Source: a virus
Lineage: Duplodnaviria > Heunggongvirae > Uroviricota > Caudoviricetes
IMG/VR virus record: IMGVR_UViG_2700989507_000006
DNA length: 64,000 nucleotides
Strand: one strand, 5' to 3'
Shown: positions 1-64,000 of the stretch, piece by piece
How positions within the stretch are numbered: the first letter of the stretch is position 1
Layout: every line of letters starts with the position of its first letter
Made by a program: the position numbers and the translations under genes
Notes under the pieces: generated by a model
The model's input: only the letters and a program-made list of their open reading frames with translations
Database searches by the model: none
Told to the model about the DNA's origin: nothing

Positions 1-72
1 AAAGTCAATGAAACTGCGCCGTAAGCGCCTCGGCTAAAGGAGGAGGCCGGAGAACTCCGGCCTTTAACTTGA

Positions 73-654
73 ATGGCACCTATACCTTATGGGGTTTACA
101 GCCAGGCTGACGGTGTATCGCCATTTCTGAAAGTTACTTTAACGAACTCTCAGTACCAGGTTACCGGATATATCAGCCAGGGGGCGGCAATGAACATGGC
201 CCAGAATTGGGAAGCACCTTTTACTGGTATGTCCATGGGTTCTGTTGCTGGTGCCTTCAGTGGTTTTGCGCAGGTTGGTACTGAAACAACGTCTGTTGCT
301 CGTTGGAACAGCTTAATGGTTTGGGAAGGGGGAACACCGCCGACTTTCACGCTGCCAGTAACTTTCATCGCTTTGTTTGACCCATTCACGGAGGTTTCAG
401 GAGCTATCGCCGCATTGTCAGCGATGATTAGCCCGGAACTCAAAGATGCCAGTATTGGTGGTCGAATCCCGGAGCGTGTGACGCTAAACATTGGTCGCCG
501 GATCAACATCATTGATGTCGCTATCCAGGACATAAGTTTCGATCTCGATGCGCCCAGGGACAGCAATGGGCATTTCCTGAAAAACACCGTCAACCTCCAG
601 TTGACCGGTTCTTCGATATATAACAGCTCCGATATTGTTCGGGCGTTCCAGTAA
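73..654 (+). CDS. putative virion (tail/baseplate) structural protein
   Basis: 193-aa ORF with balanced composition, immediately followed by a second structural-looking ORF and a terminator; the overlapping antisense ORF 150..881 looks like junk. No family recognised. Confidence 0.45.
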   Translation: MAPIPYGVYSQADGVSPFLKVTLTNSQYQVTGYISQGAAMNMAQNWEAPFTGMSMGSVAGAFSGFAQVGTETTSVARWNSLMVWEGGTPPTFTLPVTFIALFDPFTEVSGAIAALSAMISPELKDASIGGRIPERVTLNIGRRINIIDVAIQDISFDLDAPRDSNGHFLKNTVNLQLTGSSIYNSSDIVRAFQ

Positions 655-665
655 AAGGATTTTAT

Positions 666-1175
666 ATGGGGCACAATAACACTAAGGGAAACCGTAAATT
701 TATTAAGGGCCGCTATACTGCCAACGCGGCCAAAGGCGAACGACTGGTATCTTCTGAATTCCAGCTCACTTTTGCAGGCCATGAAGATATCAGCGTACTG
801 GTTCGCACGTCGCAAATTCCTGAAATGACCCGCGAGGATGTGGAGGACTATGGTCCGAATGGTGTGAAGTTCAACCAGCACGGACCAATTCGAAACTCTG
901 GGGAAATCCAGGTCCAGTGCGTGGAGACTATCGAAGGCGATATTCTTCAGTTCATCAAGGATCGCATTGCGGCGAAGGACTATGTTGATATCACGATGGC
1001 TGCTACCCCTGAATCCAAATCTTCCGGGGTTAACGCTGTGACAAAAGCTGCTACAACAATTGAAATGTTGGACTGCAAAATCTACAGTGATGCAATCGAC
1101 TTTAGTACCGAAGATGTGACTGCCGCTGTGCGCCCGTCACTTCGTATCGTCTACAACTGGATTGAGTGGGATTAA
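666..1175 (+). CDS. putative virion structural protein
   Basis: 169-aa ORF 12 bp downstream of the previous gene, followed by a rho-independent terminator. Confidence 0.45.
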   Translation: MGHNNTKGNRKFIKGRYTANAAKGERLVSSEFQLTFAGHEDISVLVRTSQIPEMTREDVEDYGPNGVKFNQHGPIRNSGEIQVQCVETIEGDILQFIKDRIAAKDYVDITMAATPESKSSGVNAVTKAATTIEMLDCKIYSDAIDFSTEDVTAAVRPSLRIVYNWIEWD

Positions 1176-1194
1176 GAGTCATCCCTTGTATTTT

Positions 1195-1218
1195 AAAGCT
1201 CCTTCGGGAGCTTTTTTT
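1195..1218 (+). terminator. rho-independent terminator
   Basis: aaagctccTTCGggagcttttttt: GC-containing hairpin followed by a T-run, directly after the stop of 666..1175. Confidence 0.6.
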
Positions 1219-1310: not shown

Positions 1311-1943
1311 ATGTTTGTGCCTGTACTGTTAAAGGGGGACTCTAAAATGGCTGTGATTCCAATGTCGTACTCCCCGGGTACTGTCGCTCGTCGATTTTCG
1401 ATCCTGGACGGAGTTACCATCCAAGGTGTGCTTTACCAGGTTATATGGGATTCCAAAACCCCATTTGCAGCTGTAATAGAGGCTGCGCCTTCTATTATCG
1501 ATGGTGATATGCGCCATAAGGTTGTAGCTACTCTTGAACTTCAACGTCGCCCGCAGCTTGAAGGCGTACTGGTAAGGAAGTTCTGGGAGGATAGCGATGT
1601 TGCCCAGATTGAAGGTATCGTGGTTGATGGAACCGTCCGGGATGTCGGTTTAGCTACTTTTGTTTACGAAACCGTAGCCTCAAAAGCTGGTGTTGTTTTG
1701 CTCAGTGATAATGAGCAATACGAAGGTGGAAAAGCTCTTTGGCAACACATCGCCCGTCGCTCTTCCGAGCTAAAAGTGTTTATCCTTGACACCGATGCCG
1801 CTCAGTATTACCCGTTTGACGGCGAACGTGTTTGCTATGACGGGGTAAGTATTCCTGAATCCGAGATATGGAGTGAACACCCAGATCGAAGTAAGCATGG
1901 GGTTGTTCTGGTCGCTGAATCCATAATTGGAAATGCGGCATAG
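1311..1943 (+). CDS. hypothetical protein (possible acetyltransferase-like fold)
   Basis: 210-aa ORF; alternative start at 1347 has a better RBS (aagggggac). AT-rich promoter-like region upstream. Function not recognised. Confidence 0.4.
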   Translation: MFVPVLLKGDSKMAVIPMSYSPGTVARRFSILDGVTIQGVLYQVIWDSKTPFAAVIEAAPSIIDGDMRHKVVATLELQRRPQLEGVLVRKFWEDSDVAQIEGIVVDGTVRDVGLATFVYETVASKAGVVLLSDNEQYEGGKALWQHIARRSSELKVFILDTDAAQYYPFDGERVCYDGVSIPESEIWSEHPDRSKHGVVLVAESIIGNAA

Positions 1944-2125: not shown

Positions 2126-2371
2126 TCAATGTCTGGCTTTTTTTCTATAGAAATCACCTGGAAGGGTGAATATCCACATCAGAAGAAATGTTGCAGCAAA
2201 CATGATCCCTAATGGCCAGACCGCGCCAAAGAAAATCCATACTAAGATCTCCTCTGCTTGTTCTTTGCGGTCGATATCGACAAGCATTTTTCGGCTGATC
2301 ATGTATACACAGAAGCCAATACAAACATATCCTGCAAAAGCGATCGCTAACTGTAAAAAATCAGATTGCAT
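2126..2371 (-). CDS. small membrane protein (two predicted TM helices)
   Basis: ORF trimmed to the Met preceded by GAGG (start at 2371); two hydrophobic stretches; lies directly downstream of the repL-like gene. An operator-like half-site (2402-2418) sits in the upstream extension of the longer ORF. Confidence 0.4.
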   Translation of the reverse strand: MQSDFLQLAIAFAGYVCIGFCVYMISRKMLVDIDRKEQAEEILVWIFFGAVWPLGIMFAATFLLMWIFTLPGDFYRKKARH

Positions 2372-2421
2372 CTCCGACCTCAAACTGAAAACGCCAGGTG
2401 ACTCCAGATTAGAGCAATCTA

Positions 2422-3267
2422 TCACCCTCTGAATCCTGCCGGTATACCCCATTGTTCGTTATCTTTATTTTTGGCTAAAACCGCATTAAGAGCTTCGTTT
2501 ACCGTCATGCAATGCGGCAGATTATCGAAGTTTGATACCCCGCCAATATCAGGAGAACGCTTGTTCTTCAGGTAAGCATATTTCCGCGCTGCCGCCTCTA
2601 CTTTCTGCTTGAACTCATGTTTTTGAGCGCGTTTTTTGGATAACCGCAGATTGTCAGCCTTTGCTTTTGCCTCAGCGATCCATGAAGTCAATTTTTTGAG
2701 TCTGGTCGTTCCGGCACCGCCGGAAACTGATCTTTTTGTTTTTTTAACTTGTGACTTCTTATTCTTTATTGCCACGTCATCCTGACAGGGGGAGGGGGTA
2801 TCATTTTGACATGGGGGTGTGGATAAAAAATTAAATAAAGCCAATGTCTTAGCGAGAACAGCTTTAACCTTGGTTGCCGCTGAAGAGATCTTTAATTTGC
2901 TTTCAATCAGCGCATTTTTGGCTTGTTGTGCGAAGGCCAAAAAGGATAGTGTAAACCGGTACAGGTTAGCGCGACGTTCATGGTGATCGCCGATAACAAT
3001 CTCTACAGACAGAATTCCTTTGTTTACAGCTTCACGGAATGCACGAACGACGGTTGATTGGCTATAACCAGTTTCTGCCGCGATCAGGCGGTGAGGCTTG
3101 TGAATGAAGTATTCACTGGTTGTTGCCGCTAGATTTGCACATTGCGACAGGATATGCCCGGCGCTACGGGATAGACCGGAGTGTGTTACAAAGCAGGCCA
3201 ATTCATAGCCAGAAAAAGTAAAATCGCTCATCGTTATACAGCTCAGGAAAGTGACTTTAGCCAGCAT
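2422..3267 (-). CDS. repL: RepL-like lytic replication initiator (winged-helix N-terminus, basic C-terminus)
   Basis: 281 aa; position after the KilA-N gene as in the P1 kilA-repL operon; N-terminal HTH-like region and Lys/Arg-rich tail. Start codon uncertain (3267 or 3231). Confidence 0.5.
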   Translation of the reverse strand: MLAKVTFLSCITMSDFTFSGYELACFVTHSGLSRSAGHILSQCANLAATTSEYFIHKPHRLIAAETGYSQSTVVRAFREAVNKGILSVEIVIGDHHERRANLYRFTLSFLAFAQQAKNALIESKLKISSAATKVKAVLAKTLALFNFLSTPPCQNDTPSPCQDDVAIKNKKSQVKKTKRSVSGGAGTTRLKKLTSWIAEAKAKADNLRLSKKRAQKHEFKQKVEAAARKYAYLKNKRSPDIGGVSNFDNLPHCMTVNEALNAVLAKNKDNEQWGIPAGFRG

Positions 3268-3296
3268 TACAATGCTGGTGGTTCTTACTACGTCTG

Positions 3297-4097
3297 TTAG
3301 CGCGTTGCCGCGACAGGTACCAGCACACCAGCATCAAGCAATCGCTTCATCAGCCACTGCTGACCTTTGCCGGTTATACGAGTCGTGAAAGAAATCCTGC
3401 TTCCATTGCTTGTATCGATCACGGTTTCTTTAAGGGTGAAATACCCACGGGATATGTATTCTTGTTTGGGGACGTTCCTGCGTTCACCGGTTGCGATCAG
3501 AATTCCGTTATCACGCAACCAGGTGAAGAGATAGTTTTGGCCCAGGCCGAGCACTTTGGCATAGTTGCCGATTAGAACCCCGCTGGCGGTAGCAACGCGT
3601 TCGGCGAATTCGACTTTAGGTGCATCCATAAGCATTTTTTGCTCCAGCCGTTGCTTTTGCTCTGCCAGGTCGGCAGCCAAACGGAGAGCTTCAGGGAGAC
3701 TCTGCGGAATAGCAGGTTGTAATCTTCCGGCTCGATAGTCGATAAATGTCTGGTTTACCTTCAGCCGAAACGCGGGAGAAATCCAGCCTGCGTACTCCAC
3801 AGCGAGCAATTCATGGGCAAAAGTGCCGCCGCCACGGCCTTCGAACGAAACTATGCAATTCTGCATAGTTTCTTTTTCAAGCTCTTCGATGAGCTGTTTT
3901 GCTGACAGCGTTCTTAGCCATTGAGCTGGCGCTTTATGGGCACCGAGTCCGCTCGCTCTGTGTAGAGCATTAAGGTTGTAACGGCCAGCGCGGTCGGTCG
4001 TAATTTCAACACCACAAATAACGGGCAGAGTGGTTGAAGGATCGACATTTTGATGAAGGTTTGATATATTCATATCCGCATTGAATGTTTGTTGCAT
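3297..4097 (-). CDS. kilA: KilA (KilA-N domain plus antirepressor-type C-terminal domain)
   Basis: 266 aa; N-terminus matches the KilA-N domain pattern; C-terminal about 110 aa is paralogous to the C-terminus of the next gene; C1 operator immediately upstream. Confidence 0.65.
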   Translation of the reverse strand: MQQTFNADMNISNLHQNVDPSTTLPVICGVEITTDRAGRYNLNALHRASGLGAHKAPAQWLRTLSAKQLIEELEKETMQNCIVSFEGRGGGTFAHELLAVEYAGWISPAFRLKVNQTFIDYRAGRLQPAIPQSLPEALRLAADLAEQKQRLEQKMLMDAPKVEFAERVATASGVLIGNYAKVLGLGQNYLFTWLRDNGILIATGERRNVPKQEYISRGYFTLKETVIDTSNGSRISFTTRITGKGQQWLMKRLLDAGVLVPVAATR

Positions 4098-4166: not shown

Positions 4167-4183
4167 AAATTTATTAGAGCAAA
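4167..4183. promoter_or_regulatory. C1 repressor operator (16/17 match to AAATTTATTAGAGCAAT)
   Basis: aaatttattagagcaaa upstream of the kilA start; matches the position of the P1 kilA-repL operator. Confidence 0.6.
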
Positions 4184-4260: not shown

Positions 4261-5670
4261 TTAACCTATTGCTACTGGTTTTAACAAACCAGCATCAAGT
4301 AGCTTGCGAGTTAACCACTGCTGGCCTTTACCCGTTAATTGGGGCGTCAGCCGTATCTGATAGCCATTTTCATCATCCAGCACCACTTCTTTCACCGTGA
4401 AATACCCGGCGTTGATGTACTGTTGGCGCGGTACGTTTTTGCGCGCACCAAAAGCCATGAGAATGCCGTTCTGGCGCAACCATGAGAAAAGGGCGTTTTG
4501 CTTAAGTCCAACGACCTTTGCAAAGTTCCCGATCAGGATTCCATTAGCCACTGATACCCGATCGGCAAAATCGACTTTAGGGGCTGCGGCCACCAGCTGC
4601 TGATTTAGCTGGTGGGTTTTCTGTTCCAGTAGCTGCTTTTGTTCAGCCAGCTCGGCAGCCAGGCGCAGAGCTTCGGGAAGCGTCTGGGGGATTGCGACCG
4701 GTTGCTGTTCTTTTTGCCGGAAGTAGCTGTCTTCCAGTTTTTCAAAGAATGCCCACGCTTGCTCTGTGTCTACGATCTTAGACATGCGTGCCGCTCCGCG
4801 TTCGGTCCAGAGTATTAAGGATCTGGTCTTGGGGGAAATTTGCAGCTCGCTAAAAGATAGTCGCAAACTTTTTATCTCATCTCCTTTGATTTTAAAGAAG
4901 TGTTTACCCTCTACAAATCGTTCTTCATTGCGATTGTAGTTCTGCTGAATACGAATAGGTGTAGTGCCATACCCTCTAGCAAGAGTCTCGGTTGTCACGA
5001 CGCGTACTCCCTGCCATTCCAGAACGGGAATTTCATCAGGCTGATTTTCAACATTTATAGGTTCCAATGACTGAATCATGGTATGTAGCGAACGGCGGAC
5101 CGCTTTTGACTCGCGCGCGGCGACTCGCAGGGCTTGTTTGTAGGTCATGGTTATGACAACCATAGGCGTACCACCACCTGGCGGCACGGTTGCACTTTTT
5201 GTGTAACCGTCCTCACCTTCTAATTCGTCGAGTATTTTTTCGATGAATTTGTTGTTCCGAACCTCTGGTTCCCCACATAACTTACGCGCTTCATTGACCA
5301 TCTTTAACAGTGTCTGGCTGTCGATTGTGTCTCCGGTGGTGGGGATGACATTCACGGCTGGTGCTGGCGTTGCTGAAGCAACAGGTGCTGGTTTTTTAAC
5401 ATTCAAATTATTACTGGTCATTCTATGTGCCTCCTTTCTCATTTCTGCTGCCACCGTTGCGTAACGTAGACGTCCTTGTTCAATCAAATAATCCCTGATC
5501 TCGGCTATCAGTAGCCTGTTGATCACAGCCTTATCTGTTCGGGTATAAAAACGTCTGGTTATCATGAAATAGTTGGCAATTGCGCCGGGGATCTCCCGTG
5601 TCGGCACACAGGCAGTATGCAGGGCGATCGCTTCGGCTATGTCATTACGGGTGACGAGAGGTTTTTTCAT
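4261..5670 (-). CDS. ant: antirepressor Ant (ORF6N-type N-terminal domain plus ANT/KilAC C-terminal domain)
   Basis: 469 aa; central region matches the ORF6N domain pattern; C-terminus matches the antirepressor C-terminal domain; start overlaps the stop of the icd-like ORF. Confidence 0.65.
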   Translation of the reverse strand: MKKPLVTRNDIAEAIALHTACVPTREIPGAIANYFMITRRFYTRTDKAVINRLLIAEIRDYLIEQGRLRYATVAAEMRKEAHRMTSNNLNVKKPAPVASATPAPAVNVIPTTGDTIDSQTLLKMVNEARKLCGEPEVRNNKFIEKILDELEGEDGYTKSATVPPGGGTPMVVITMTYKQALRVAARESKAVRRSLHTMIQSLEPINVENQPDEIPVLEWQGVRVVTTETLARGYGTTPIRIQQNYNRNEERFVEGKHFFKIKGDEIKSLRLSFSELQISPKTRSLILWTERGAARMSKIVDTEQAWAFFEKLEDSYFRQKEQQPVAIPQTLPEALRLAAELAEQKQLLEQKTHQLNQQLVAAAPKVDFADRVSVANGILIGNFAKVVGLKQNALFSWLRQNGILMAFGARKNVPRQQYINAGYFTVKEVVLDDENGYQIRLTPQLTGKGQQWLTRKLLDAGLLKPVAIG

Positions 5671-5927: not shown

Positions 5928-6106
5928 GCTGCTAAACAGGTGGCAGGACGTGACGGGGTTAGCAGACTGGCGATTGTGAAACCAGCAGGCCGAAGCCTCC
6001 CCATCACGCCCCACCATAATTTGGGCGTAACGCGGTTTTACGGACACAAAAATACCGCAATATAGGATATCTGCGGCTGTCCGCACAATCATTCAGGCTG
6101 CTAAAC
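5928..6106 (-). ncRNA. c4: c4-type antisense RNA and leader region (boundaries approximate)
   Basis: 10-bp direct repeats (gtttagcagc on the transcribed strand) at 5928-5937 and 6097-6106 flank a segment containing partially complementary elements; sits between a sigma70-like promoter and icd, as in the P1 immI leader. The about 77-nt RNA itself probably lies near 5945-6025. Confidence 0.35.
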
Positions 6107-6133
6107 CCGGTCGCAGAATTTGCTACGACGGCG

Positions 6134-6162
6134 GAACTATAAGCCTGAACGATTAAAAGGTC
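6134..6162 (-). promoter_or_regulatory. sigma70-like promoter (TTGACC-17-TATAGT) reading toward c4-icd-ant
   Basis: Hexamers with 17-bp spacing read on the minus strand. Confidence 0.4.
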
Positions 6163-6202: not shown

Positions 6203-6219
6203 AAATTTATTAGAGCATT
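6203..6219. promoter_or_regulatory. C1 repressor operator (15-16/17)
   Basis: aaatttattagagcatt, lying between the divergent immI leader and the downstream secreted-protein gene. Confidence 0.55.
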
Positions 6220-6315
6220 ATATGCTTAATAAATACACAATTGGATCTAATAACCTCTTTTTTTTAAAGGCGAAAATATGTACCCTAAATGAGTTATAAG
6301 GCAGGTGAGGTTATA

Positions 6316-6963
6316 ATGAGAAAACTATTACTACCGTTATTATTTATGGCTGGGACTGTTAATGCAGCATCAAGCGTAAAGGAGATTTGTACCGATTATA
6401 CGAAATACCTTGGGCACGTTTACGGCTTTGCTGTCAGTCAAGACGAATCCATGCGCAAGAAGTTACTGTCAGATATGAAACGCCTTAAACTTTCTGAAGC
6501 GATGGTGCAGCAAGAACTGTATAAAGTCGCAACCAACGAAAATGCTAAATATCAATATTCTCGCCTGTTAAATCCCGACGCAAACGAGATCAATCGAAGC
6601 TCTTTCGATTATATGGTAAAGGCATGCGAAACCGCTCCTGATTTTGCTATCCCTAGCTGGGGTGTGCTGGTGGCGAGCAATGCCGTTAATAAAGAAGACG
6701 TTGGAAGAAACGGCATTGATTCAATCAGAAACGCCCCGGGAATGCGCCATCAAAACGTGCAGGGTACGCTTGAAGAGCGGGCCAGGGGGCCGGGTACAAA
6801 CTCCCCAATGGGAAACCTCTCACCAGAGGAATTGCAAGAGTATAACCAACGGATGGAGCAGTATGAGAAAGCGGCACGCGAACAAATGGAACAACAAAAG
6901 AACGGCTCACTTAATACCTTCCAGCAAGGTTTAAAAGCGCTTAATTTACCCTATGAATGGTAA
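6316..6963 (+). CDS. secreted/periplasmic protein, possible superinfection-exclusion (Sim-like) protein
   Basis: Start chosen at MRKLLLPLLFMAGTVNAASS (signal peptide) with RBS ggtgagg; ORF track starts at 6289. Shares a peptide motif with Sit (see findings). Confidence 0.6.
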   Translation: MRKLLLPLLFMAGTVNAASSVKEICTDYTKYLGHVYGFAVSQDESMRKKLLSDMKRLKLSEAMVQQELYKVATNENAKYQYSRLLNPDANEINRSSFDYMVKACETAPDFAIPSWGVLVASNAVNKEDVGRNGIDSIRNAPGMRHQNVQGTLEERARGPGTNSPMGNLSPEELQEYNQRMEQYEKAAREQMEQQKNGSLNTFQQGLKALNLPYEW

Positions 6964-7024
6964 ATATATTATGGATAACCAATTAAAATATTGATAATCG
7001 TTAATATCCAAAGGAGATAAATTA

Positions 7025-7501
7025 ATGCGCATCAAACGATTTTTTCTAATTCTTGCTTTGCTTACTCCATTTTCATCAATGGCAAATGTAAGCAAATGGT
7101 CAACCGGCGAGACTCATGGTGTTCGTTCTTATGCTGTTTCCAGCAAAGATAATTATACGCTTACATTTGAGTGCGATGTTGGATTTAATAATACGGATCC
7201 CAATCAAGTAGGAACACGACTACTCACTCTCATGAAAACAGAACCTGGCGGTGAGTCATTTGATGCTAAAAAAGAACAAATAACGCTGAAAGTTGGTGAT
7301 GATGAATATCCTATCAGTTCTATCGGTTCCTCTGTGGGTGATAGTTACTGGTATGGTTTTTGGTCAGATACCCCTGATATGGAAGTTAAAACATTCGATG
7401 CATACGTAGACGGAAAAAAAATCGCAACATTTACGCTACGTAAGGCCGCAGAGCTTTTCAACGCGGCACCTGAAGATGGCTGCCTGAAGCGCGCAAAATG
7501 A
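7025..7501 (+). CDS. secreted protein of unknown function
   Basis: 158 aa with N-terminal signal peptide MRIKRFFLILALLTPFSSMA; RBS aaggagat upstream. Confidence 0.55.
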   Translation: MRIKRFFLILALLTPFSSMANVSKWSTGETHGVRSYAVSSKDNYTLTFECDVGFNNTDPNQVGTRLLTLMKTEPGGESFDAKKEQITLKVGDDEYPISSIGSSVGDSYWYGFWSDTPDMEVKTFDAYVDGKKIATFTLRKAAELFNAAPEDGCLKRAK

Positions 7502-7535
7502 CCTGTCACAAATGACTACTCGTAGAATCGGTTAA

Positions 7536-8126
<591 letters not shown>

Positions 8127-8136
8127 GGGGGCTGAT

Positions 8137-8748: not shown

Positions 8749-8762
8749 ATTAAGGAGCAAGG

Positions 8763-46421: not shown

Positions 46422-46439
46422 TCAAGCGCAAATGAACGG

Positions 46440-54336: not shown

Positions 54337-54355
54337 TGTTTCGTAACTCCACTAC

Positions 54356-55419: not shown

Positions 55420-55438
55420 AGCGTTTTCACCTCAATAA

Positions 55439-55458
55439 TACTGTTCATTTATACAGTA
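55439..55458. promoter_or_regulatory. LexA box (SOS operator)
   Basis: TACTGTtcatttatACAGTA matches CTGT-N8-ACAG; between divergent humD and the + strand gene. Confidence 0.7.
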
Positions 55459-55593
55459 TACATTAAAGAGACACCTTTGGTGCAAACGCGTTATGTACAT
55501 CAATCACCGCAGATGATTTTGTGCGCTTTGCTACTATTCATCACCAACGGATCCGCGTAATCTCATTGCCAATCAGTTAATAAGGAATTAGCT

Positions 55594-56175: not shown

Positions 56176-56235
56176 ATCGAGGTAGAAAACACATTGTTTA
56201 AGGCCACTAATTGTGGCCTCAAAGGGGAGAGATGC

Positions 56236-56787
56236 TTATTGGCTATGGCTAAAAATCAAATGAGACACTTCATGTGGTTGTAGCTCGTCAAGATCCGGGG
56301 CCACAAAACCTTTTCCGAAAGACTTCACAAGTGATTCACCAGCCACATCATTGTCACCTATTACACGAAAGTCATACGGCAGCATCGCAAGTTGACGGCG
56401 TAATCCAGCGGAGAAAGTCGAACCTAACAGCGCCCACGAATTGCCGCCCGCGTTGTGTACAGCTGCGCTCTTAAAAATAGACTCAGTTATCCATATTGGG
56501 CCATCTTTTAAAGGAAGATAGGTTCCCCAAAGTAACTGTCTGCCATGTGATCGCGTGAAATACCGGGCCATCTTCGGATTGCTATGCTGCTTAGGAGCAC
56601 CTGGTCTATATGTCTGATACCCAGCCAACATCCCATCAAACCTGTATAGAGGGAATGTAACTACTCCTTCGCTTTCATCGATCCACTGTCTATATGGGTG
56701 TATATCATGGCGGTAGTTACGAGTTAGCAAATGAGCTTCCAGCTTTCCAAATTTTGTCATATTCCGTTCTTCCTGCATACTGGGCAT
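56236..56787 (-). CDS. small TOPRIM-domain protein
   Basis: IWITESIFKSAAV (conserved Glu) and VIGDNDVAGESL (DxD) resemble TOPRIM motifs; N-terminal start uncertain. Confidence 0.45.
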   Translation of the reverse strand: MPSMQEERNMTKFGKLEAHLLTRNYRHDIHPYRQWIDESEGVVTFPLYRFDGMLAGYQTYRPGAPKQHSNPKMARYFTRSHGRQLLWGTYLPLKDGPIWITESIFKSAAVHNAGGNSWALLGSTFSAGLRRQLAMLPYDFRVIGDNDVAGESLVKSFGKGFVAPDLDELQPHEVSHLIFSHSQ

Positions 56788-57062
56788 GTGTTCTCTGTGA
56801 AATATGGGAAACTATTATCCAGCTCATCTACCCACTGTTTATGGTCGAAGCAGAAAAATATCTCCCACGGCATTCCATATTCTTCCATCCATAGGCGGAT
56901 CTGCATTTCTATTGGAATCGGCGGTATTGCAGACACCATATCAACAGGATAACAGTTCAGACGACGTTCCAGTTCTTCTACTCTCTTCTGGAGATGAAAT
57001 ATCCGATCCAGATGCACACGCCGCTCCCGTGCCATTTTAAAATAAAGCTCGCCGGTCATCAT
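56757..57062 (-). CDS. small Cys-motif protein, paralogue of the next gene
   Basis: C-terminal motif WE.FFC.DH..W.DELD.SFPYF.E..CP.CR shared with 57062..57358. Confidence 0.4.
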   Translation of the reverse strand: MMTGELYFKMARERRVHLDRIFHLQKRVEELERRLNCYPVDMVSAIPPIPIEMQIRLWMEEYGMPWEIFFCFDHKQWVDELDNSFPYFTENTCPVCRKNGI

Positions 57063-57358
57063 TAACTCCTACATTCAGGGCAAGAGTTCCCTTCCGCAAA
57101 ATAGGGGAAACTGCTATCAAGCTCATCACACCATCTGCGATGGTCGTAGCACCAAAACGCCTCCCACGGTGCACGGAAATACTTCATCCACCAGGACACT
57201 CGATCAGGTATATCTGCTGGTGGCAGCTCTTCTGGCAATAATTTGCCTGATAATTCCCTTTCCGCCCGCGCCAGCATTCCTTTTAGACTCGCATTCTCTT
57301 TTTCAAGAATATCTATGCGCGCCTGTAACTCAGCTTTCGTTGGCATGGTCCGCCTCAT
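57062..57358 (-). CDS. small coiled-coil/Cys-motif protein, paralogue of 56757..57062
   Basis: Start taken at the internal Met (MRRTMPTKAEL); ORF track starts at 57427. Confidence 0.4.
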   Translation of the reverse strand: MRRTMPTKAELQARIDILEKENASLKGMLARAERELSGKLLPEELPPADIPDRVSWWMKYFRAPWEAFWCYDHRRWCDELDSSFPYFAEGNSCPECRS

Positions 57359-58010
57359 GTTTTTCAGCCACCAGCGGCAATAAAGCCCTGGCCATCTTAT
57401 GAACCAACAGAGCATCGATAATGCCAAGCGTATGCCCCGGCTTAATGTTTAATGCCGCCTCAAGGTGACACCTTTCCAGGTCACTTTTCTCGGCTTGTTT
57501 ATGATGATCTGGCGTAATAACGTCGCCCAAAACACGGCTAATTCTTTCTCGTAATTGCTGGGTGCCAGCACACTTGATCGCTGTATCGTGGAGACGGTTA
57601 ACCAGTTCGCGATAAACATGCGGCTTAATGCGGATACGTTCACCGGTGACGCCCTTTCCTGGCGCTGGCACCGAACTATCCGGAATATCCGGATAGTTGC
57701 CAGCCTCGTAAGCTACCCGCAGCCAGTGCATGAATGTTTCAGTGGACACACAACCACAGTCCACATCGATTTTTCCGCGTTGCTGTTCCAGCCACTGCTC
57801 AAAATTCAATCTACACGTATTACTTTCATGTTGCTCTTTTTGTCTCAAGGCCAGCACCTGTTGGGCCAGTTTCAGAACGATACCGGGTGACGCTAACCTC
57901 TCAAATTCCAATAAATAGTTTGCGTCAGGATGACAAGTAGCCTCGCCTGCAAAAAATACCAATTGCTGTAAGTATGCTGTCGTTAGAGTAGTCATTTCTT
58001 TTTGCGCCAT
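57330..58010 (-). CDS. hypothetical protein
   Basis: 226-aa ORF; boundaries uncertain. Confidence 0.4.
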   Translation of the reverse strand: MAQKEMTTLTTAYLQQLVFFAGEATCHPDANYLLEFERLASPGIVLKLAQQVLALRQKEQHESNTCRLNFEQWLEQQRGKIDVDCGCVSTETFMHWLRVAYEAGNYPDIPDSSVPAPGKGVTGERIRIKPHVYRELVNRLHDTAIKCAGTQQLRERISRVLGDVITPDHHKQAEKSDLERCHLEAALNIKPGHTLGIIDALLVHKMARALLPLVAEKHEADHANES

Positions 58011-58366
58011 TTCTTTTCACATTCCTTAGTCCATTTTTCAATGTTCATTTTGGCAATATCAGTCATTCCATCACCTAAGAAATACTTTTTCCGGTACGTC
58101 TTGCACTTAAACCACACTACAACAGCCACCAGCCAGAAAATAAAAGGCCATACGGCAATACCAACTCCAGCCGCGATAAAGCCCAATATCCATAAATGAA
58201 GCTCTCCAACTTCTGTTTCCGGCAATATTCTTAAAGAATTAAACAGCAGGCTGAACGAATGGTCGTATGCATTGGCAGTATAAGACATGCAATCCATATA
58301 ATTAAAGTCATAGCCTGCGGCTGCCGCCCATAATGGGCGGTCAAGAAAATGTTTTAGTGTCATCAT
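57992..58366 (-). CDS. membrane protein
   Basis: 124 aa with a strongly hydrophobic central helix pair and Lys-rich C-terminus. Confidence 0.4.
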   Translation of the reverse strand: MMTLKHFLDRPLWAAAAGYDFNYMDCMSYTANAYDHSFSLLFNSLRILPETEVGELHLWILGFIAAGVGIAVWPFIFWLVAVVVWFKCKTYRKKYFLGDGMTDIAKMNIEKWTKECEKKWRKKK

Positions 58367-58372
58367 ATTAAT

Positions 58373-58666
58373 TTAAGGTTCAGACCAGTTATCTTCAATA
58401 GCAATGCTTAATCTTTGTAGCCATTCTGCTAATTTCAGCATTGCTTCTCTTTCGCTTAAACCACACGGAAAATCATCAAGCGATATTGTTGGCTTGAAGT
58501 TTCCCAAATTATCCATTTCAACGGTCAGATTTTGCTCCAGAACGGTATTTCTTACGCGGCTATTGTGCCGAAGCAAATATACTGAACGTGATTTATTGGT
58601 TTTGTGGTCGAACGTATATTCGGTAAGTATCATCTGACTTCCGCCATGATTATTACCGCGCCACAT
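58373..58666 (-). CDS. hypothetical protein
   Basis: 97-aa ORF in a tightly packed minus-strand operon. Confidence 0.35.
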   Translation of the reverse strand: MWRGNNHGGSQMILTEYTFDHKTNKSRSVYLLRHNSRVRNTVLEQNLTVEMDNLGNFKPTISLDDFPCGLSEREAMLKLAEWLQRLSIAIEDNWSEP

Positions 58667-58689
58667 AATTACTCCGTGTTAATTGAAAT

Positions 58690-58971
58690 TTAGCTATTAA
58701 TCTTCACTTTTATCGCGAACACCTTTACCGGTTTATCACCGAAGTGTGGATGTGTGATTGTTTTTATTTCATATCCGTTATACGGGACGTCAATTCTGCG
58801 ACTGAAGTCTTCGCGCTTCGGATATCCCTTTGTGATAATCAGGCGGTCATACTCCCGGAACATAATTCGCTTATTCCAGTAGTCATTACACAGGCGATAT
58901 TCTTCTGTTTTCTCTCCACGAATCATGGCATCGAAGTATTCACCTTTGACGGCAAGTTGCAGGTTAGCCAT
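58690..58971 (-). CDS. hypothetical protein
   Basis: About 93 aa from the internal Met that overlaps the upstream stop. Confidence 0.35.
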   Translation of the reverse strand: MANLQLAVKGEYFDAMIRGEKTEEYRLCNDYWNKRIMFREYDRLIITKGYPKREDFSRRIDVPYNGYEIKTITHPHFGDKPVKVFAIKVKINS

Positions 58972-59231
58972 TACCGCACCTCCAGTCTCCATACCGCCTG
59001 ACCAATCCGGCTGGCATAGGTATCTTTGGATACTGCTCCGTCTTTAGCCAGCTCCATAAGAATTTTGCGCAAATCTGCCGAACGCCATTCTTCATCAGGA
59101 AATTCCTTCTCCATTGCCAACCGCAGATTCCAGGTTGCTATCGTGAATGGATATTCACCGCCGAGAGCTTTCTCTTGTAGGGCAGCACGGGAACGCATCA
59201 CCTGCAAAACCTTCTCTTTTACATCCATCAT
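58971..59231 (-). CDS. hypothetical protein
   Basis: About 86 aa from the internal Met (MMDVKEK) that overlaps the upstream stop. Confidence 0.35.
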   Translation of the reverse strand: MMDVKEKVLQVMRSRAALQEKALGGEYPFTIATWNLRLAMEKEFPDEEWRSADLRKILMELAKDGAVSKDTYASRIGQAVWRLEVR

Positions 59232-59773
59232 TTCGCCTCCTGTGGCGGTTCTGGTAGCGGCATCCAGTGTGATGGAATCCACGACGCACCAGGAATTATC
59301 CAACCATCATTAGCATCAGGATGTCCCGGTATGTAAGTCGCCCACTTCATTCGCCAGTCACCTTTCCCGTCAAACTCCCTGGCAACAAGAACAGCTGTTT
59401 TGCTATCCGGCATTCGCTCACTACAGCTTATCCAACCATCCGGAGTTACCGGAGAGTTGCCATTTACATCGAAGTTTGGCTCTGCGTCCTGAACCAGGAG
59501 GATGTAACCATTCTTGGCAGTATCAAGTTCTAACGCCTCGGTGACGGTGCCGAAATAGCGATTACCTAAATCAGCATCACAAGTGCTTACATCAATGGAA
59601 ACTTCCATCCCTTCGATTAATTCTGGCAAGTTGTAAGTTTGGCTTACAGGCTCTGCTTCCAGCGATGCCAGTGCAATTTCATAAGCACGGCGCTCAATAT
59701 TGTCTCGAACGTCCAGGCCGCCTATGCGCTCTTTGATTTCTTTAATCAGTTCTTTGTCGGTAAAAGTGGTCAT
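59228..59773 (-). CDS. DUF551-like protein
   Basis: C-terminal ...GWI.PGASWIPSHWMPLPEPP resembles the DUF551 signature of lambdoid early-region proteins. Confidence 0.45.
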   Translation of the reverse strand: MTTFTDKELIKEIKERIGGLDVRDNIERRAYEIALASLEAEPVSQTYNLPELIEGMEVSIDVSTCDADLGNRYFGTVTEALELDTAKNGYILLVQDAEPNFDVNGNSPVTPDGWISCSERMPDSKTAVLVAREFDGKGDWRMKWATYIPGHPDANDGWIIPGASWIPSHWMPLPEPPQEAK

Positions 59774-60135
59774 GCTGTAGCCCCTTCTTGATATTTTTCA
59801 AACCAGAACACAACCGGGTCAGATTTCATTTCAACCAATCCCATACGAACCAGCGCTTTGCCTTTCCCGGACGCAAGGAATTCACGACGACCATCACTGA
59901 TAATTCGCCGATAATCTTCCAGGCTACTGCAATGCTTGTGCAGATTGCATGGGTGGCATGCTGGTACCATGTTGGATATATCGTCACATTCCTGGTGAAG
60001 CATATTTCCATCAAAACGAATGACCGGTTTTACATGGTCTGCATGCCACTTTTCGCCAAGTTCGCAGCCGCAATAAGCGCAGCGACCACCAAACTTCATG
60101 CGCAATTCTGCACGTTGTTTTTTCGTCAGTGCCAT
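59770..60135 (-). CDS. HNH endonuclease
   Basis: About 121 aa from MALTKKQRAEL; CAYCGCEL...HADHVKP...CHPCNLHKH motif. Confidence 0.6.
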   Translation of the reverse strand: MALTKKQRAELRMKFGGRCAYCGCELGEKWHADHVKPVIRFDGNMLHQECDDISNMVPACHPCNLHKHCSSLEDYRRIISDGRREFLASGKGKALVRMGLVEMKSDPVVFWFEKYQEGATA

Positions 60136-60136
60136 A

Positions 60137-60355
60137 TCAGCTTTCCTTATACGGATTAATTTTATTGTGCAGTGTGTTGAACGACGCCCATACCACGTCG
60201 TTATACAATTCAATAACTGGCTCAATTATTTTCCCGATTATCCAGACCAGTAATAGCGGGGATATCGGTATCATCAACACGATAAACAGAATGAGAAACA
60301 AAAATTCTGTTGTTCTACTCCTTCGCGGATATTTTTTTCTGAATAATGTGACCAT
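60137..60355 (-). CDS. small membrane protein
   Basis: 72-aa ORF with one long hydrophobic stretch, just upstream of the HNH gene. Confidence 0.3.
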   Translation of the reverse strand: MVTLFRKKYPRRSRTTEFLFLILFIVLMIPISPLLLVWIIGKIIEPVIELYNDVVWASFNTLHNKINPYKES

Positions 60356-60449
60356 TCATTACCGCCCTTTCGGGCGGCCTCCTGATGTTCTGAGGGTGCA
60401 GAAATCCCTCCGGTTAAGGATTAAATTTTATTTACAACACTAAATTTAA

Positions 60450-61115
60450 TTATTCAGGCGCGCGAATCTGTTCCGCACAATGCAACAATGCTTCTGTCAC
60501 TTCCTTAAGCGTCACGGTATCGGCATCATCCAGTCCTGCAACTTTTGCGTGCCTGACAAACGCCGCGCGAAGCTCGTTAAACGCCACCGCCCGTACATCA
60601 GCCAGGAAAGCATCTGTAGCCAAGGTTTGCGGCATACCTCCGTCTGTTGCGCAGATATACGCATCAGATATTTCATCCTGCTGGCCATCAAACACGTAGC
60701 AACAGCCCCTGATAAACAGCTTCATTGAGGCATTCTCCACTGCCAGCGCCGTGCGATTACCATCCAGCTCTGCAATGCGCTGTTTTGCGGCATCCAGTTC
60801 AATCGACAATTTTCCCAACTGCTCTTGATGCTTCTTGTATTCCTGATATGCGTGCCAAGACTGACCTTTGCGCACACTATCAGTGATATCAGTAATCTGT
60901 TCTGGTGTTAGCGTGGTCAGTGGCTGTGATGGGAAAATAAGCACTTTCCCGGAATCCCAATCAAAACCAGCGTGAATTGACTGAACCTCAACTGAAGGTG
61001 TTGAACCAATGCTGCCAGGCGAATGAACAACGATCGTTACATCCATATCGCGACGATGGCTGTGGTTGTTGGACAAAATACGATTCACCAACTCAGAAAA
61101 TTTGGAAAATTTCAT
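60450..61115 (-). CDS. Ea22/Ead-like protein
   Basis: 221 aa; shares IAELDGNRTALAVENA and TLATDAFLADVRA segments with 61399..62274. Confidence 0.45.
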   Translation of the reverse strand: MKFSKFSELVNRILSNNHSHRRDMDVTIVVHSPGSIGSTPSVEVQSIHAGFDWDSGKVLIFPSQPLTTLTPEQITDITDSVRKGQSWHAYQEYKKHQEQLGKLSIELDAAKQRIAELDGNRTALAVENASMKLFIRGCCYVFDGQQDEISDAYICATDGGMPQTLATDAFLADVRAVAFNELRAAFVRHAKVAGLDDADTVTLKEVTEALLHCAEQIRAPE

Positions 61116-61435
61116 GCTGATTCCCCTTTCTCTGCTCTCTCCTGTCGGAACATCACTATCATCAGGTCGCCTTTTGTCGCTATCCTGGCTGTTGTACCTG
61201 GTTCAATGCGGCTAAGCTCAAATGCGTCATAGAACGCTTCTAATGCCTTCTGGCGTAGTTCCTGTTTGCGCCGTTTTTTCCACTGTTTTAGGAAAATGGA
61301 ACCCAGCCATCGCCATGTACGGGACATGATGTAAAGCCAACCGAGAAGTGCCAGACCGGTATTTAGGAGCGTATCGATCGTTATTGTCGTGTCGATATTC
61401 ACTGGCTGCTTCCTTTGCGAATCTGTTCCGCCCAT
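61112..61435 (-). CDS. small hypothetical protein (possible membrane protein)
   Basis: ORF overlapping the downstream start by 4 bp; start uncertain. Confidence 0.3.
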   Translation of the reverse strand: MGGTDSQRKQPVNIDTTITIDTLLNTGLALLGWLYIMSRTWRWLGSIFLKQWKKRRKQELRQKALEAFYDAFELSRIEPGTTARIATKGDLMIVMFRQERAEKGESA

Positions 61436-62274
61436 TCTTCAAGGGATTTCTCCGCATATTCACCAGACAGGCCATCAATCGGATGCGCTTCATTAGCCAA
61501 CTCTTCTTTCGCTGACAAAATCATGCGTGTAACGTCGAAAACTTCACGCAAAGACTTATTGATAAATCCGTGATTGAACGCAGCAGCAAGACGGCTGGCG
61601 GTATAGTTAATCCCCTCGTTGCGTGCTTCCGCACGTACTTCAGCAAGGAAAGCATCGGTGGCTGGGGTTTCGACATTAGGTCGAAGCTCATAATCACAAA
61701 CTCTTTCAATCCATGGTGATACTCTGTCGCATTTCCTCTTCTTGCGTTCACCGACCTTGGTTGCCTGCTGAATAATTACCCCCCAGCAAATGCTTTCGAC
61801 CTCTTCGCTCCATCCATCGCAAGCATCGCCTCTATAGTCGTCAATTGCAGCCTCAGCAGCAGCGATAGCCTCCTCAGCAGTTTTGTGACACTCGAAACTA
61901 AATTCAGAGCCATATGAGAAATACATAGCCCCGGCCTTAAGCCCCGCATTCTCCGCCACCAGCGCCGCGAGATTAGTCTCAAGCTCTGCAATTCGACACA
62001 TAGCATCAATATTTGTGTCCTCCAGGCGCTTAATTTCACCAAGCAGCTCCAGTGCAACCTTTGGGTTGAACGCGGCAACATAACGAGCGTTGTTCTCTGC
62101 ATTTTTCTGTCCATCAAAGCCGGTCCATTTGATAACGTCTTCACATCGTTCATCACCTGGCGTGTGCACCGCATAAGTACCAGTATCCGTCGAAATAAAT
62201 GCGACCCATTCATCTGGTGTTGCCTTTTCTGCCGCCTCACGCAGTACCTGATAGTCAATTGTCATTCTCGCCAT
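61399..62274 (-). CDS. Ea22/Ead-like protein
   Basis: 291-aa paralogue of 60450..61115. Confidence 0.45.
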   Translation of the reverse strand: MARMTIDYQVLREAAEKATPDEWVAFISTDTGTYAVHTPGDERCEDVIKWTGFDGQKNAENNARYVAAFNPKVALELLGEIKRLEDTNIDAMCRIAELETNLAALVAENAGLKAGAMYFSYGSEFSFECHKTAEEAIAAAEAAIDDYRGDACDGWSEEVESICWGVIIQQATKVGERKKRKCDRVSPWIERVCDYELRPNVETPATDAFLAEVRAEARNEGINYTASRLAAAFNHGFINKSLREVFDVTRMILSAKEELANEAHPIDGLSGEYAEKSLEEWAEQIRKGSSQ

Positions 62275-62942
62275 CCTTCACAGTTGTAATCACTACAGCC
62301 TTCAAAATCATATGGGCTGTACTGCCAAGTTATTTTTCCGCAATGCGGACAATTCCAACGCACCTTCCCGCTTCGCGACTTCTTTCTTCTGTTCTGCTCT
62401 TTCAACCAGTCAGGCATGACCAAACCTGCGCCCTGAACCATTGTTCTACGGTTAAAGTTATTGATATTGAACGTCCGGCGCTTTGCTGCATCAGCAATGG
62501 AAAATGGCAACCAAACTATTCCTGGTTCGTTTTTGTTGGCGACGCTAAAGATGGTCGCTTTACTGAAGTCATCTGTTGGCAATCCACCGTGTTGAAGCCA
62601 GTAAACATCGTTGCCGTTCCAGCTACCTTTTTTGTAGGCCACATACGCAGTGCAATCTGACTCAATCAGGCTTTCTGTAGGGATGTACTGGCAATCAACG
62701 TGCCACACAGCCATTGCATCCACGCTATCAGCGCAAACAGGCTGATCGATATCTCGACCACAATTCCAGGCTTTTTGGGCTTCTTCCTGCGTGTAAACAT
62801 GTGCTCGATCGATATCAGAACTGTAACCATTGCCGTTATGGCAATGGAATGAGGCGTTATTACCCACAGTTTCACGCAAGCACATCATGTAAAAACGGTT
62901 ACTCACTGGTTGCCTCCTTGGTGGAGTTGCGCTGCGATGCAC
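62262..62942 (-). CDS. Cys-rich hypothetical protein
   Basis: About 210-226 aa; C-terminal CPHCGK...C..C motif; start uncertain. Confidence 0.4.
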   Translation of the reverse strand: MHRSATPPRRQPVSNRFYMMCLRETVGNNASFHCHNGNGYSSDIDRAHVYTQEEAQKAWNCGRDIDQPVCADSVDAMAVWHVDCQYIPTESLIESDCTAYVAYKKGSWNGNDVYWLQHGGLPTDDFSKATIFSVANKNEPGIVWLPFSIADAAKRRTFNINNFNRRTMVQGAGLVMPDWLKEQNRRKKSRSGKVRWNCPHCGKITWQYSPYDFEGCSDYNCEGWRE

Positions 62943-63142
62943 GAAAAAAAAGACTCCCGAGTGTGACAGTTAAGAGCTGGTGCGAACGCCGCGTTAAGAA
63001 CGGCGGCATCACAGCCGTCATCAATATAGAGCGCAATTTTTTTCTCCAGGCGCGCTTTGGCTTCCTGCAACTGCATACCCCAGCACGCACGCGGGATATA
63101 ATCAGCAATTTGAGCGATAGCTTTTTCGTTCTGTTTAAACAT
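62903..63142 (-). CDS. small hypothetical protein
   Basis: 79-aa ORF in operon context. Confidence 0.3.
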   Translation of the reverse strand: MFKQNEKAIAQIADYIPRACWGMQLQEAKARLEKKIALYIDDGCDAAVLNAAFAPALNCHTRESFFSCIAAQLHQGGNQ

Positions 63143-63338
63143 GCTTCACCTCGATAGGCTTGATGGTGTCTAACAGCAGTCGGCGGCGCGTATTTTCTGC
63201 AAAATGGCGGCGTCCAGTTTCTTTGTGGTAAAACTCGTTTTTGCCAACGACCCACATCCGCTCTGTTTGGTGCAGTTTTTTTACCTTCGGGCCATCTTTG
63301 GTGATCACGGTACCGGTATGGGTTTTTACGATTGTCAT
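63135..63338 (-). CDS. small basic protein
   Basis: 67-aa ORF overlapping both neighbours by 4-8 bp. Confidence 0.35.
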   Translation of the reverse strand: MTIVKTHTGTVITKDGPKVKKLHQTERMWVVGKNEFYHKETGRRHFAENTRRRLLLDTIKPIEVKHV

Positions 63339-64000
63339 TCCACTACCTCTTCGAATTTCAACTCCAATTGGTCACCCCAGATTTCACATGATTCGGAACA
63401 CGAACCAGTATCAAACCGCTTGGCCAGCACCATCGCCTGATACAAATTTCTGTAGTCACTGTCGGCATACATTCTGGCAATCCCGTCAAGCGTCAGGAGG
63501 CCACGGTACATAACGTCTTTACCTGTTCTGCGCTGACCATCCCTGACGTGTTTGCCTGTAACCAGTTCATTAAAAACCCGCATCAGACCTGGTTCGTCTT
63601 TACATGCAAGCCCCAGCTTTTGCGTTGACTTTTTGATGCAAAAAACACAGTTCCCGAGGTGCTCCGGGATTTGCAAATCAAAAGGTTGTTTTCGCCACCA
63701 CCGGATAACATCCGACTTATCAAAATCTGACAGTTCGGCAAGATACCGGACGCCCGGTTTCGGTTTCAGCCTACGGGGTTCGTCCGCACGAATACCGAGC
63801 CATGTGATGTAATTCCCTCGCCCAAAATGGTCATCGCAATATTTCGTGAAAGGGGTGAGTTTTAGCCTGTCGGTACAGAATGCGCCGCCGATGTATGGCG
63901 TACCGTACTTTTTAACCATGTCCATAAACGGTTTAAGCACCGGCATTCGCGTCTGAATATCCTTTGGTTCCCATTCCGTATAACCATTTGGCTGCCCAAG
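63335..64000 (-). CDS. PAPS-reductase-like protein (N-terminus beyond the window edge)
   Basis: The reading frame stays open to position 64000 upstream of the first Met; C-terminal region with conserved Cys pairs resembles phage PAPS-reductase family proteins. Confidence 0.6.
   Translation of the reverse strand, partial: LGQPNGYTEWEPKDIQTRMPVLKPFMDMVKKYGTPYIGGAFCTDRLKLTPFTKYCDDHFGRGNYITWLGIRADEPRRLKPKPGVRYLAELSDFDKSDVIRWWRKQPFDLQIPEHLGNCVFCIKKSTQKLGLACKDEPGLMRVFNELVTGKHVRDGQRRTGKDVMYRGLLTLDGIARMYADSDYRNLYQAMVLAKRFDTGSCSESCEIWGDQLELKFEEVVE

Follow-up and report, generated by a model that had tools for sequence, protein, structure and literature searches.

The 64,000-nt stretch of IMG/VR virus record IMGVR_UViG_2700989507_000006 analyzed here (the window, to which all positions and strands refer) carried the genes of a P1-like phage-plasmid. 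By blastn, 50,686 of the 64,000 nt (79%) aligned with P1 (NC_005856) at a mean identity of 95.6%, the window being antiparallel to the P1 map and running from P1 position 54628 (pmgG) down to 1, across loxP to 94800, and on to 85182 (pmgU). The order began with pmgG-bplB, repL-kilA, ant-icd-c4, pmgC...sit...bplA-16-R-S, the C-segment, cin, lydABC-hdf-darA-ddrAB-hxr, isaA-ssb, lyz-lydDE and pro-prt, and continued with darB-ulx-lxc, mat, ref-c8-cre-cra, loxP, imcAB-coi-c1, pacBA, lpa, pdcBA, doc-phd, humD, lxr and pmgU. A sequence-only reading of this DNA had described the gene order as the P1 map in reverse, and this was borne out both by blastn and by tblastn searches in which 59 of 83 P1 proteins matched the window; the agreement in order was far beyond chance. 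Nearly all backbone proteins matched over their full length at 88–100% identity, mostly at 92–100%, with lower values for PacB (88.7%), c8 (90.3%) and Ant1 (81–84%, in two pieces). The features are given below, where percentages are identities to the P1 counterparts and ORF stands for open reading frame.

73–1175, plus strand: pmgG and bplB, baseplate/tail morphogenesis (91.2% and 99.4%)
1218–2407: replacement of pmgF-rlfB-rlfA, with no P1 match; SJ46 has 86% of the segment
1939–2113, minus strand: remnant of a hok/sok leader (Rfam RF01794, sok, 94.7 bits; gathering threshold 59)
2422–4097, minus strand: repL and kilA, lytic replicon (97.9% and 99.6%)
4167–4183: C1 operator OrepL, an exact match to that of P1
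4261–6219, minus strand: immI, comprising an ant1 variant, icd, c4, a1/b1 and Oc4
4261–5670, minus strand: the ant1 variant, 469 amino acids, with ORF6N and KilAC domains (Pfam)
5936–6021, minus strand: c4 antisense RNA (Rfam C4, 69.6 bits)
6090–6142, minus strand: a1/b1 target sites (Rfam c4-a1b1, 55.5 bits)
6203–6219: operator Oc4
6289–7501, plus strand: replacement at the sim locus, encoding proteins of 224 and 158 amino acids (phrog_3933 and phrog_3429)
7510–16253, plus strand: late tail/baseplate operon with LPsit, pmgC, tub, pmgB, sit, pmgA, bplA, gene 16, LPs and R (96.6–100%; late promoters kept)
16265–19207, plus strand: tail-fibre gene S, constant and currently expressed variable parts (intact ORF of 1009 amino acids; Phage_fiber_2 and gp37_C domains)
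17615–21832: invertible C-segment with chaperones U and U' and silent Sv'
21826–22386, minus strand: cin, DNA invertase (98.9% to P1 Cin)
22508–29795, plus strand: lydC-like holin variant, LPdar, lydA, lydB, hdf, darA, ddrA, ddrB and hxr (96–100% except the lydC variant)
29827–30921, minus strand: paralogue of PacB (large terminase), 364 amino acids, matching phrog_5902 over its full length
30914–32330, minus strand: isaA and ssb with Ossb (97.0% and 99.4%; operator exact)
32358–33333, plus strand: LPlyz, lyz, lydD and lydE, lysis (93–100%; promoter exact)
33313–36095, minus strand: pro and prt with LPpro, head processing and portal (99.7% and 98.9%; promoter exact)
36110–43596, plus strand: darB, ulx and lxc (98.8%, 98.6% and 100%)
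43597–43635: empty restriction-modification (R-M) slot, 39 bp with one GC hairpin between the convergent lxc stop (ends at 43596) and mat stop (starts at 43636)
43636–44427, minus strand: mat, 213-amino-acid allele, with LPmat (allele at 43636–44389; 95.9% to P1 Mat residues 32–250; LPmat exact)
44436–45185, minus strand: gene for a Cys-rich plus DUF4145 (HEPN-fold) protein in an AT-rich insertion
45272–47700, minus strand: ref, c8, cre and cra (92.4%, 90.3%, 99.1% and 98.6%; Oref exact)
47890–47923, plus strand: loxP, an exact 34-bp match (0 expected by chance)
47967–49476, plus strand: immC, comprising Oc1e, Oc1d, Oc1c, Oc1a/b, imcA, imcB, coi and c1 (97–100%; operators exact)
49501–52233, minus strand: pacB, pacA and LPpac (PacB 88.7%, PacA 95.7%)
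52265–52804, minus strand: lpa, late promoter activator, with Olpa (99.3%; operator exact)
52806–54077, minus strand: pdcB and pdcA (97.1% and 98.5%)
54061–54336, minus strand: ORF of 91 amino acids inserted between doc and pdcA (phrog_31462, 6.6e-62)
54356–54963, minus strand: doc and phd, addiction module (95.2% and 100%)
55030–56175: humD (minus strand) and lxr (plus strand) (98.5% and 93.7%)
56236–57427, minus strand: replacement of hot-upfONM-pmgV, with a toprim/primase-like ORF of 183 amino acids and two phrog_3797 ORFs
57330–63946, minus strand: variable early block with a pmgT/pmgU remnant, ORFs of unknown function, DUF551, HNH, phrog_368, DUF4752, Ead/Ea22, phrog_2457 and a PAPS-reductase-like ORF (Pfam, PHROG)

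Five relatives, Escherichia phage P1, Enterobacteria phage P7, Salmonella phage SJ46, Escherichia phage 813R1 and the E. coli IncY phage-plasmid pNADC1036IncYphage (hereafter pNADC1036), were compared locally with the window. P7 (NC_050152) aligned over 51,030 nt (80%) at a mean identity of 96.1%, SJ46 over 49,766 nt at 96.4%, 813R1 over 48,465 nt at 96.6%, and pNADC1036 (NZ_CP076266), the best single match found, over 56,904 nt (89%) at 95.7%; synteny with the five relatives extended over 79–89% of the window at about 96% identity, with the map order kept. Identities of the P1-aligned blocks ranged from 93.2% to 98.3%, and those of the variable C-segment parts from 84% to 88%. When the three parts of the window were compared by megablast with 50,697 phage records, P1, P7, RCS47, SJ46 and other Punavirus members matched at 93–98%, none covering all of it. 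No identical public record was found by megablast of all window parts among phages, PLSDB plasmids and complete E. coli genomes, where the best coverage of a sub-window by any one record was 79–96%.

The differences from P1 lay in eleven segments, namely 1218–2407, 4693–5086, 6456–7507, the C-segment tips, 22440–22795, 29794–30912, the R-M slot, 44445–45256, 54116–54365, 56162–57364 and 57712–64000. High overall similarity, the same gene order and an exact loxP would also be expected if the window came from P1 or P7, or from a laboratory derivative or cloning vector that had lost res-mod and IS1 by deletion. Such an identity is ruled out for practical purposes by the per-block identities, with 2–7% divergence over the whole backbone and a PacB at only 88.7%; in addition, about 21% of the window had no alignment with P1, the eleven separate replacements or insertions matched natural plasmids from animals and humans, c4 was of the P7 type, and for many blocks the nearer relative was SJ46 or 813R1, not P1 or P7. 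The earlier view of a P1-like variant rather than P1 itself therefore stood (79% aligned at 95.6%, about 21% unaligned), and the alignment to P1 and P7 with identity per block, which had been proposed along with it, gave neither full identity nor an overlooked res-mod or IS1. The International Committee on Taxonomy of Viruses delimits species by at least 95% nucleotide identity across the whole genome (identity times aligned fraction); on the window, this product was about 76% with P1 (0.79 x 95.6%) and about 77% with P7 (0.80 x 96.1%), below the value for species Punavirus P1.

These findings indicate that the window very probably represents about two-thirds of a natural mosaic, Punavirus-type temperate phage-plasmid that is neither P1 nor P7 and has P7-type c4 immunity. 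The mosaic is drawn from a pool of modules circulating among P1-like plasmids of the E. coli group; each non-P1 segment has precedent in other P1-like phages or plasmids, and the novelty lies only in the combination. With the single exception of 62899–63255, each non-P1 ORF scanned could be assigned to a known PHROG, in most cases across its whole length. E. coli, Salmonella and their relatives commonly carry P1-like phage-plasmids, which are known as mosaics with swappable accessory slots. Recombining genes make up about 30% of each such element (PMC10879196). This one is thus an unremarkable member of a very well-known family, a mosaic not recorded before and of small weight as a discovery, and the window can be annotated with confidence by transfer from P1 and P7.

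Several points weigh against this assignment. The whole window was unmatched in the three collections, and its exact combination of genes was without a record. The window includes neither repA, oriR, incA and parAB nor about 30 kb of genes for head, tail and replication; in P1 the replicon and partition genes map at 58.9–62.9 kb, just left of window position 1. A plasmid state is suggested by the relatives and by the presence of cre-lox and phd-doc, two accessory stability functions, but at least one close relative is chromosomal (NZ_CP093011). The mat gene is a short allele, in which the first 36 codons of P1 mat were present but out of frame, and the hok/sok module at 1939–2113 is only a remnant. 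The mat frameshift was considered as a sign of pseudogene formation or decay and rejected, the same 213-amino-acid allele being annotated in SJ46 and many plasmids. No tRNA genes were found in the window; those of P1 map outside it.

Relative to P1, the window shared C1, Coi, Cre-loxP, PacAB, Lpa, Phd-Doc, the Dar operon, Cin with the C-segment, the late promoters and the C1 operators; it lacked res-mod, IS5, IS1-isaB, simBC, rlfAB, pmgF, hot, upfMNO, pmgV and full pmgT, whereas the PacB paralogue, the DUF4145 gene, the 91-amino-acid ORF (orf91), the toprim ORF and the lambdoid-like block were absent from P1. With P7 it had in common the c4 recognition sequences, the P7-like expressed variable part of S and an Ead/Ea22-type gene in the right variable region, but it lacked the EcoP7 res-mod of P7, its Tn3 (ref-mat joint), nmpC (IS1 locus) and IS903, its different set of sim-locus genes, and rapAB. 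In the plasmid pNADC1036 the ref-mat joint likewise held the DUF4145 gene, and the plasmid also had the toprim block, the same lydC variant and a large part of the Ead/Ea22-DUF4752 block. It differed in several ways: its R-M slot was filled by a GNAT gene, it had IS421 and an intact hokD, a second icd-ant module lay next to c1, the IS1 locus held a different gene, the PacB paralogue was missing, and the ref-cre-c1 region was only about 91% identical to that of the window. SJ46 shared block 1218–2237, the 213-amino-acid mat allele and the pac-c1 region (98%) but carried its own cargo, CTX-M-27/Tn1721 and RelA/SpoT; 813R1 shared the PacB paralogue and carried IS609 and a four-gene slot of its own. 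The sim replacement was shared with Escherichia phage Ro157c2YLVW, 79% of the right end, PAPS reductase included, with the P1-like plasmid CP148519, and the empty R-M slot, at 100% identity, with the P1-like plasmid NZ_CP035313.

Lambdoid-style early genes had been proposed for the right end, and they were confirmed there: the Shiga toxin (Stx) phage ArgO145 matched at 93.0% over 59759–60621 and at 94.6% over 62899–64000. In ArgO145 the genes in common with the block sit in the early-left region, flanked by int on one side and exo/recT/kil on the other, and 516 phage records, mostly of Stx-converting lambdoid phages, matched the block at 90–95%. A chimeric assembly, in which a P1-like contig was fused with a lambdoid prophage near 57.7 kb, might produce such a pattern, since the last 4 kb were 93–95% identical to Stx prophages; so might an integrated, decayed P1-like remnant, as chromosomally integrated P1-like elements exist (PMC10879196). 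Both are highly improbable. Complete circular P1-like plasmids (CP148519, NZ_CP067401, CP088756 and pNADC1036) have the same genes in the same order and position; the junction at 57.3–57.8 kb keeps pmgU/pmgT sequence; Ead/Ea22-type genes occur at the right end of P7 too; and all backbone ORFs in the window were full length save mat and isaA. CP148519 covered 79% of 57712–64000 at 98.5%, about 785 plasmids carried parts of the block, and many P1-like plasmids of about 96 kb had the same genes. At the same position P7 has an Ead/Ea22 homologue and a CP-933U-like gene, and window 62229–62917 was 98.1% identical to P7. From its occurrence in P7 and many plasmids, the block can be regarded as standard content, that is, as a known variable region of the P1 family and no special mark of this natural mosaic. 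The PAPS-reductase-like ORF at its end (63335–63946, minus strand) was common to Stx phages at 94.6%, where it is annotated NinC; it matched only the C-terminal half of a phage family profile and, weakly, PADLOC SspD (5.9e-6), and its N-terminal half may lie past the end of the window.

The absence of type III restriction genes, noted in the sequence-only reading, was likewise evident from the alignments. P1 Res, P7 Res and P7 Mod had no tblastn match anywhere in the window; P1 3438–9742, which in that record comprises res, mod and IS5, corresponded to only 63 unaligned bases, and P7 8394–13499 had no counterpart. No insertion sequence (IS) was found in the 64 kb seen, again as had been claimed. 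InsA, InsB and IsaB had no tblastn match in the window; IS1, IS5, Tn3, IS903, IS605, IS421 and Tn1721 from relatives gave no blastn match beyond a 27-nt flank; no transposase domain was detected among the ORFs of the non-P1 segments; and the remaining ORFs of at least 150 amino acids were P1 homologues or antisense overlaps of these. P1 22533–24245 (IS1 and isaB) was replaced by 1.1 kb at 29794–30912. A PADLOC search of the non-P1 ORFs for known defence systems returned two weak matches only, to PD-T7-4 (E 0.0047) and to SspD. In the part of the element seen there is neither a restriction system nor an insertion sequence, a resistance gene or a complete known defence system. Such absences are not unusual in the family: in a 2025 survey, complete known defence systems were confined to 28% of the P1-like contigs from E. 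coli (bioRxiv 10.1101/2025.09.12.675607). In the same survey the Dar-Ddr anti-restriction set was universal (10.1101/2025.09.12.675607), and the window had the full Dar set, namely darA, darB, ddrA, ddrB, hdf and ulx.

The lxc-mat slot carries type III R-M in P1 and P7, a RelA/SpoT-family gene in SJ46, a GNAT gene in pNADC1036 and four ORFs in 813R1. Given res-mod in both P1 and P7 and some cargo in most relatives, a recent deletion of type III R-M, with loss of a function on which the element normally depends, is conceivable but somewhat unlikely, as neither blastn nor tblastn detected res or mod remnants and the joint was a tidy 39-bp spacer with a single hairpin between two intact convergent genes. 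Moreover, of 694 plasmid records matching a 401-bp probe over the empty joint, 31, from several hosts, had it without interruption, and three of these were 100% identical. Since the same joint recurs in several hosts, the physically empty slot is a minority yet circulating allele; on sequence alone, a deletion and a slot that was never filled would look the same.

Two further loci behaved in the same manner, and the window thus illustrates three hot spots of recombination, the lxc-mat slot, the ref-mat joint and the ssb-hxr locus, whose cargo among relatives includes R-M, CapRel-type, GNAT, Tn3, CTX-M and porin genes. At the ref-mat joint, P1 has nothing extra, P7 has Tn3, SJ46 has Tn1721/CTX-M-27, and the window has the DUF4145 gene; at the ssb-hxr locus, P1 has isaA-IS1-isaB, P7 has nmpC, and the window has isaA and the PacB paralogue. 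Replacements beyond those recognized in the sequence-only reading were found at rlfAB-pmgF, simBC, the IS1 locus, the ref-mat joint and hot-pmgV, together with the P7-type c4.

Within immI, the c4 RNA and its a/b targets (5930–6150) were identical to those of P7 and differed from those of P1 exactly at the positions of the recognition loops. Heteroimmunity between P1 and P7 is set by c4, so the element would be of the P7 type at immI and should be heteroimmune to P1 there. Ant1 had 469 amino acids as compared with 347 in P1, a segment with the ORF6N domain being inserted between the N-terminal and KilAC parts; this middle segment (4693–5086) also occurred in pNADC1036. At the sim locus, SimB and SimC were absent by tblastn of P1 proteins against the window. 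The segment replacing simBC (6456–7507) was covered to 100% by Ro157c2YLVW at 97.1%, and the 224-amino-acid protein of the locus kept the N-terminal 50 amino acids of SimA and contained a 47-amino-acid stretch with 49% identity to Sit residues 937–979. The C1 repressor was 99.6% identical to that of P1 (tblastn). Of the 12 P1 C1 operators in the interval, 10 were kept exactly, and the operator consensus gave 11 matches versus 0.22 expected; seven of the eight P1 late promoters in the interval were kept, six exactly and LPs with one mismatch. The lost sites LPhot, Orlf and Omat were all at recombination joints. With promoters, operators and pac conserved, the P1 regulatory circuitry is intact in this part of the genome.

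By homology to P1, every function of the phage-plasmid would have P1-like activity. Lysogeny would be maintained by C1 repressing scattered operators, with c4 RNA, icd and ant forming a second layer of immunity, while plasmid stability would depend on Cre-loxP to resolve dimers and on Phd-Doc to kill plasmid-free segregants. After derepression, RepL would replicate the DNA for lytic growth, Lpa would switch on the late promoters, and PacAB would cut at pac and package in the headful mode. During infection, Dar proteins packed in the head would shield the incoming DNA from restriction, and inversion of the C-segment by Cin would switch the host range by exchanging one tail-fibre tip for the other. 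The accessory slots set the element apart from P1, with simBC, rlfAB and hot-pmgT swapped for small genes, some of them common to lambdoid prophages.

The PacB paralogue occupied the position at which P1 has IS1 and isaB and P7 has nmpC, and 813R1 matched segment 29794–30912 at 96.3%. Its ORF, located downstream of ssb and overlapping the isaA stop codon, shared 36% identity (E 5e-56) with PacB residues 11–274, which comprise the ATPase domain. Both nucleotide-binding motifs were altered, with loss of the Walker A Lys (GIGET in place of GTGKS) and of the Walker B Asp-Glu (VINAAE in place of IIDEAS). An unrelated tail of some 90 amino acids took the place of the C-terminal 220 amino acids of PacB, nuclease domain included. 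The protein is accordingly altered at each of these sites and is predicted to be catalytically dead. It is conserved in P1-like elements, but its close relatives were limited to one cluster of 851 sequences at 91% identity and a single homologue at 53% whose motifs are degenerate in a similar way; in a homologue at 29% both Walker motifs are kept. A C1-controlled pseudo-terminase, cotranscribed with ssb and isaA, might act as a packaging decoy by binding PacA, the portal or pac DNA, thereby timing the packaging of its own phage or blocking rival P1-like phages, but we regard this as improbable. If true, it would be a form of inter-phage exclusion undescribed for the P1 family, and, together with the HEPN gene described below, it would mean that uncharacterised conflict genes stand in for restriction-modification.

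The 812-bp insertion at the ref-mat joint (44445–45256; 37–40% GC) was also present in pNADC1036. Its gene encoded a protein with an N-terminal, beta-rich domain of about 105 amino acids containing six invariant cysteines (C20, C23, C63, C67, C72 and C78), for which no match to a zinc-ribbon family or fold was obtained, and a C-terminal DUF4145 domain with the HEPN fold. RAZR/PD-T7-4 is a ring-activated HEPN RNase composed of a zinc finger and DUF4145, with catalytic residues R146 and H154 (PMC13017515). The window protein had the same domain order, Cys-rich N-terminal and then C-terminal DUF4145/HEPN, and likewise an invariant His 8 residues past a conserved basic residue. However, the catalytic Arg of RAZR is a Lys in all 37 sequences of the window family (invariant K191-x7-H199), the N-terminal domain of RAZR is smaller, and, unlike RAZR, the window gene sits behind a C1-operator-like site. 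The match to the PADLOC PD-T7-4 model was weak (E 0.0047, 14.4 bits). The top match among solved structures, PDB 9y9c (a 219-amino-acid DUF4145 protein in 24 copies), was marginal, with a profile E of 0.09 and a single-sequence E of 0.45; it is presumably the RAZR complex. Foldseek against PDB returned nothing significant for the protein. Given the marginal sequence link and the null Foldseek result, membership in RAZR was rejected, and the protein was kept as a candidate that may work like RAZR. Upstream of the gene, a promoter-like site (45306–45277) overlapped a sequence (45265–45281) that agrees with the C1 operator at 14 of 17 positions, and from this overlap the gene may be prophage-repressed rather than constitutively protective. 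The PacB paralogue and this RAZR-like gene are cheap leads on phage-phage competition.

The C-segment was bounded by inverted repeats of 633 nt (17615–18247 and 21200–21832; 94% complementary), with cix sites without mismatch at their outer ends (17616–17635 and 21812–21831), and was oriented opposite to the P1 reference record. The alignment of S was continuous with P7 S at 96.6%, the expressed variable part being like P7 Sv; the tips of the segment were partly P7-like, at 84–88% versus P1, and the fibre-tip stretches 18983–19093, 20515–20575 and 20698–20765 matched none of the five relatives. The lydC variant (22440–22795) belonged to the holin family phrog_1527 and was also present in P7 and pNADC1036.

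At the left edge, nt 1–1217 aligned with P1 54628–53412 at 95.3% (blastn), marking the border of the P1-collinear region. The following replacement (1218–2407) contained an ORF of 210 amino acids (1311–1943, plus strand) and a small membrane ORF (2126–2452, minus strand), with matches to phrog_7522 and phrog_3772. Downstream of the hok/sok leader, no Hok-like ORF was found in any frame, and tblastn with Hok and HokD gave nothing significant; a working hok/sok module was thus rejected. Homology to the hokD-bearing pNADC1036 ended at 1979, and the leader is probably a relic from recombination.

To the right of c1, the pac site was located near 51847–52007 in a region 94.4% identical to P1, and phiW39 matched the window pacAB at 99.0%. 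The 91-amino-acid ORF, in non-P1 segment 54116–54365, was rare among plasmids (10 of 1095 matching records); its 3′ end duplicated that of doc, and P1 88590–88637 aligned on both sides of the insertion. The toprim/primase-like ORF matched phrog_849, DNA primase (2e-53), and its segment (56162–57364) was covered to 100% at 98.1% by pNADC1036, in which a toprim protein is annotated.

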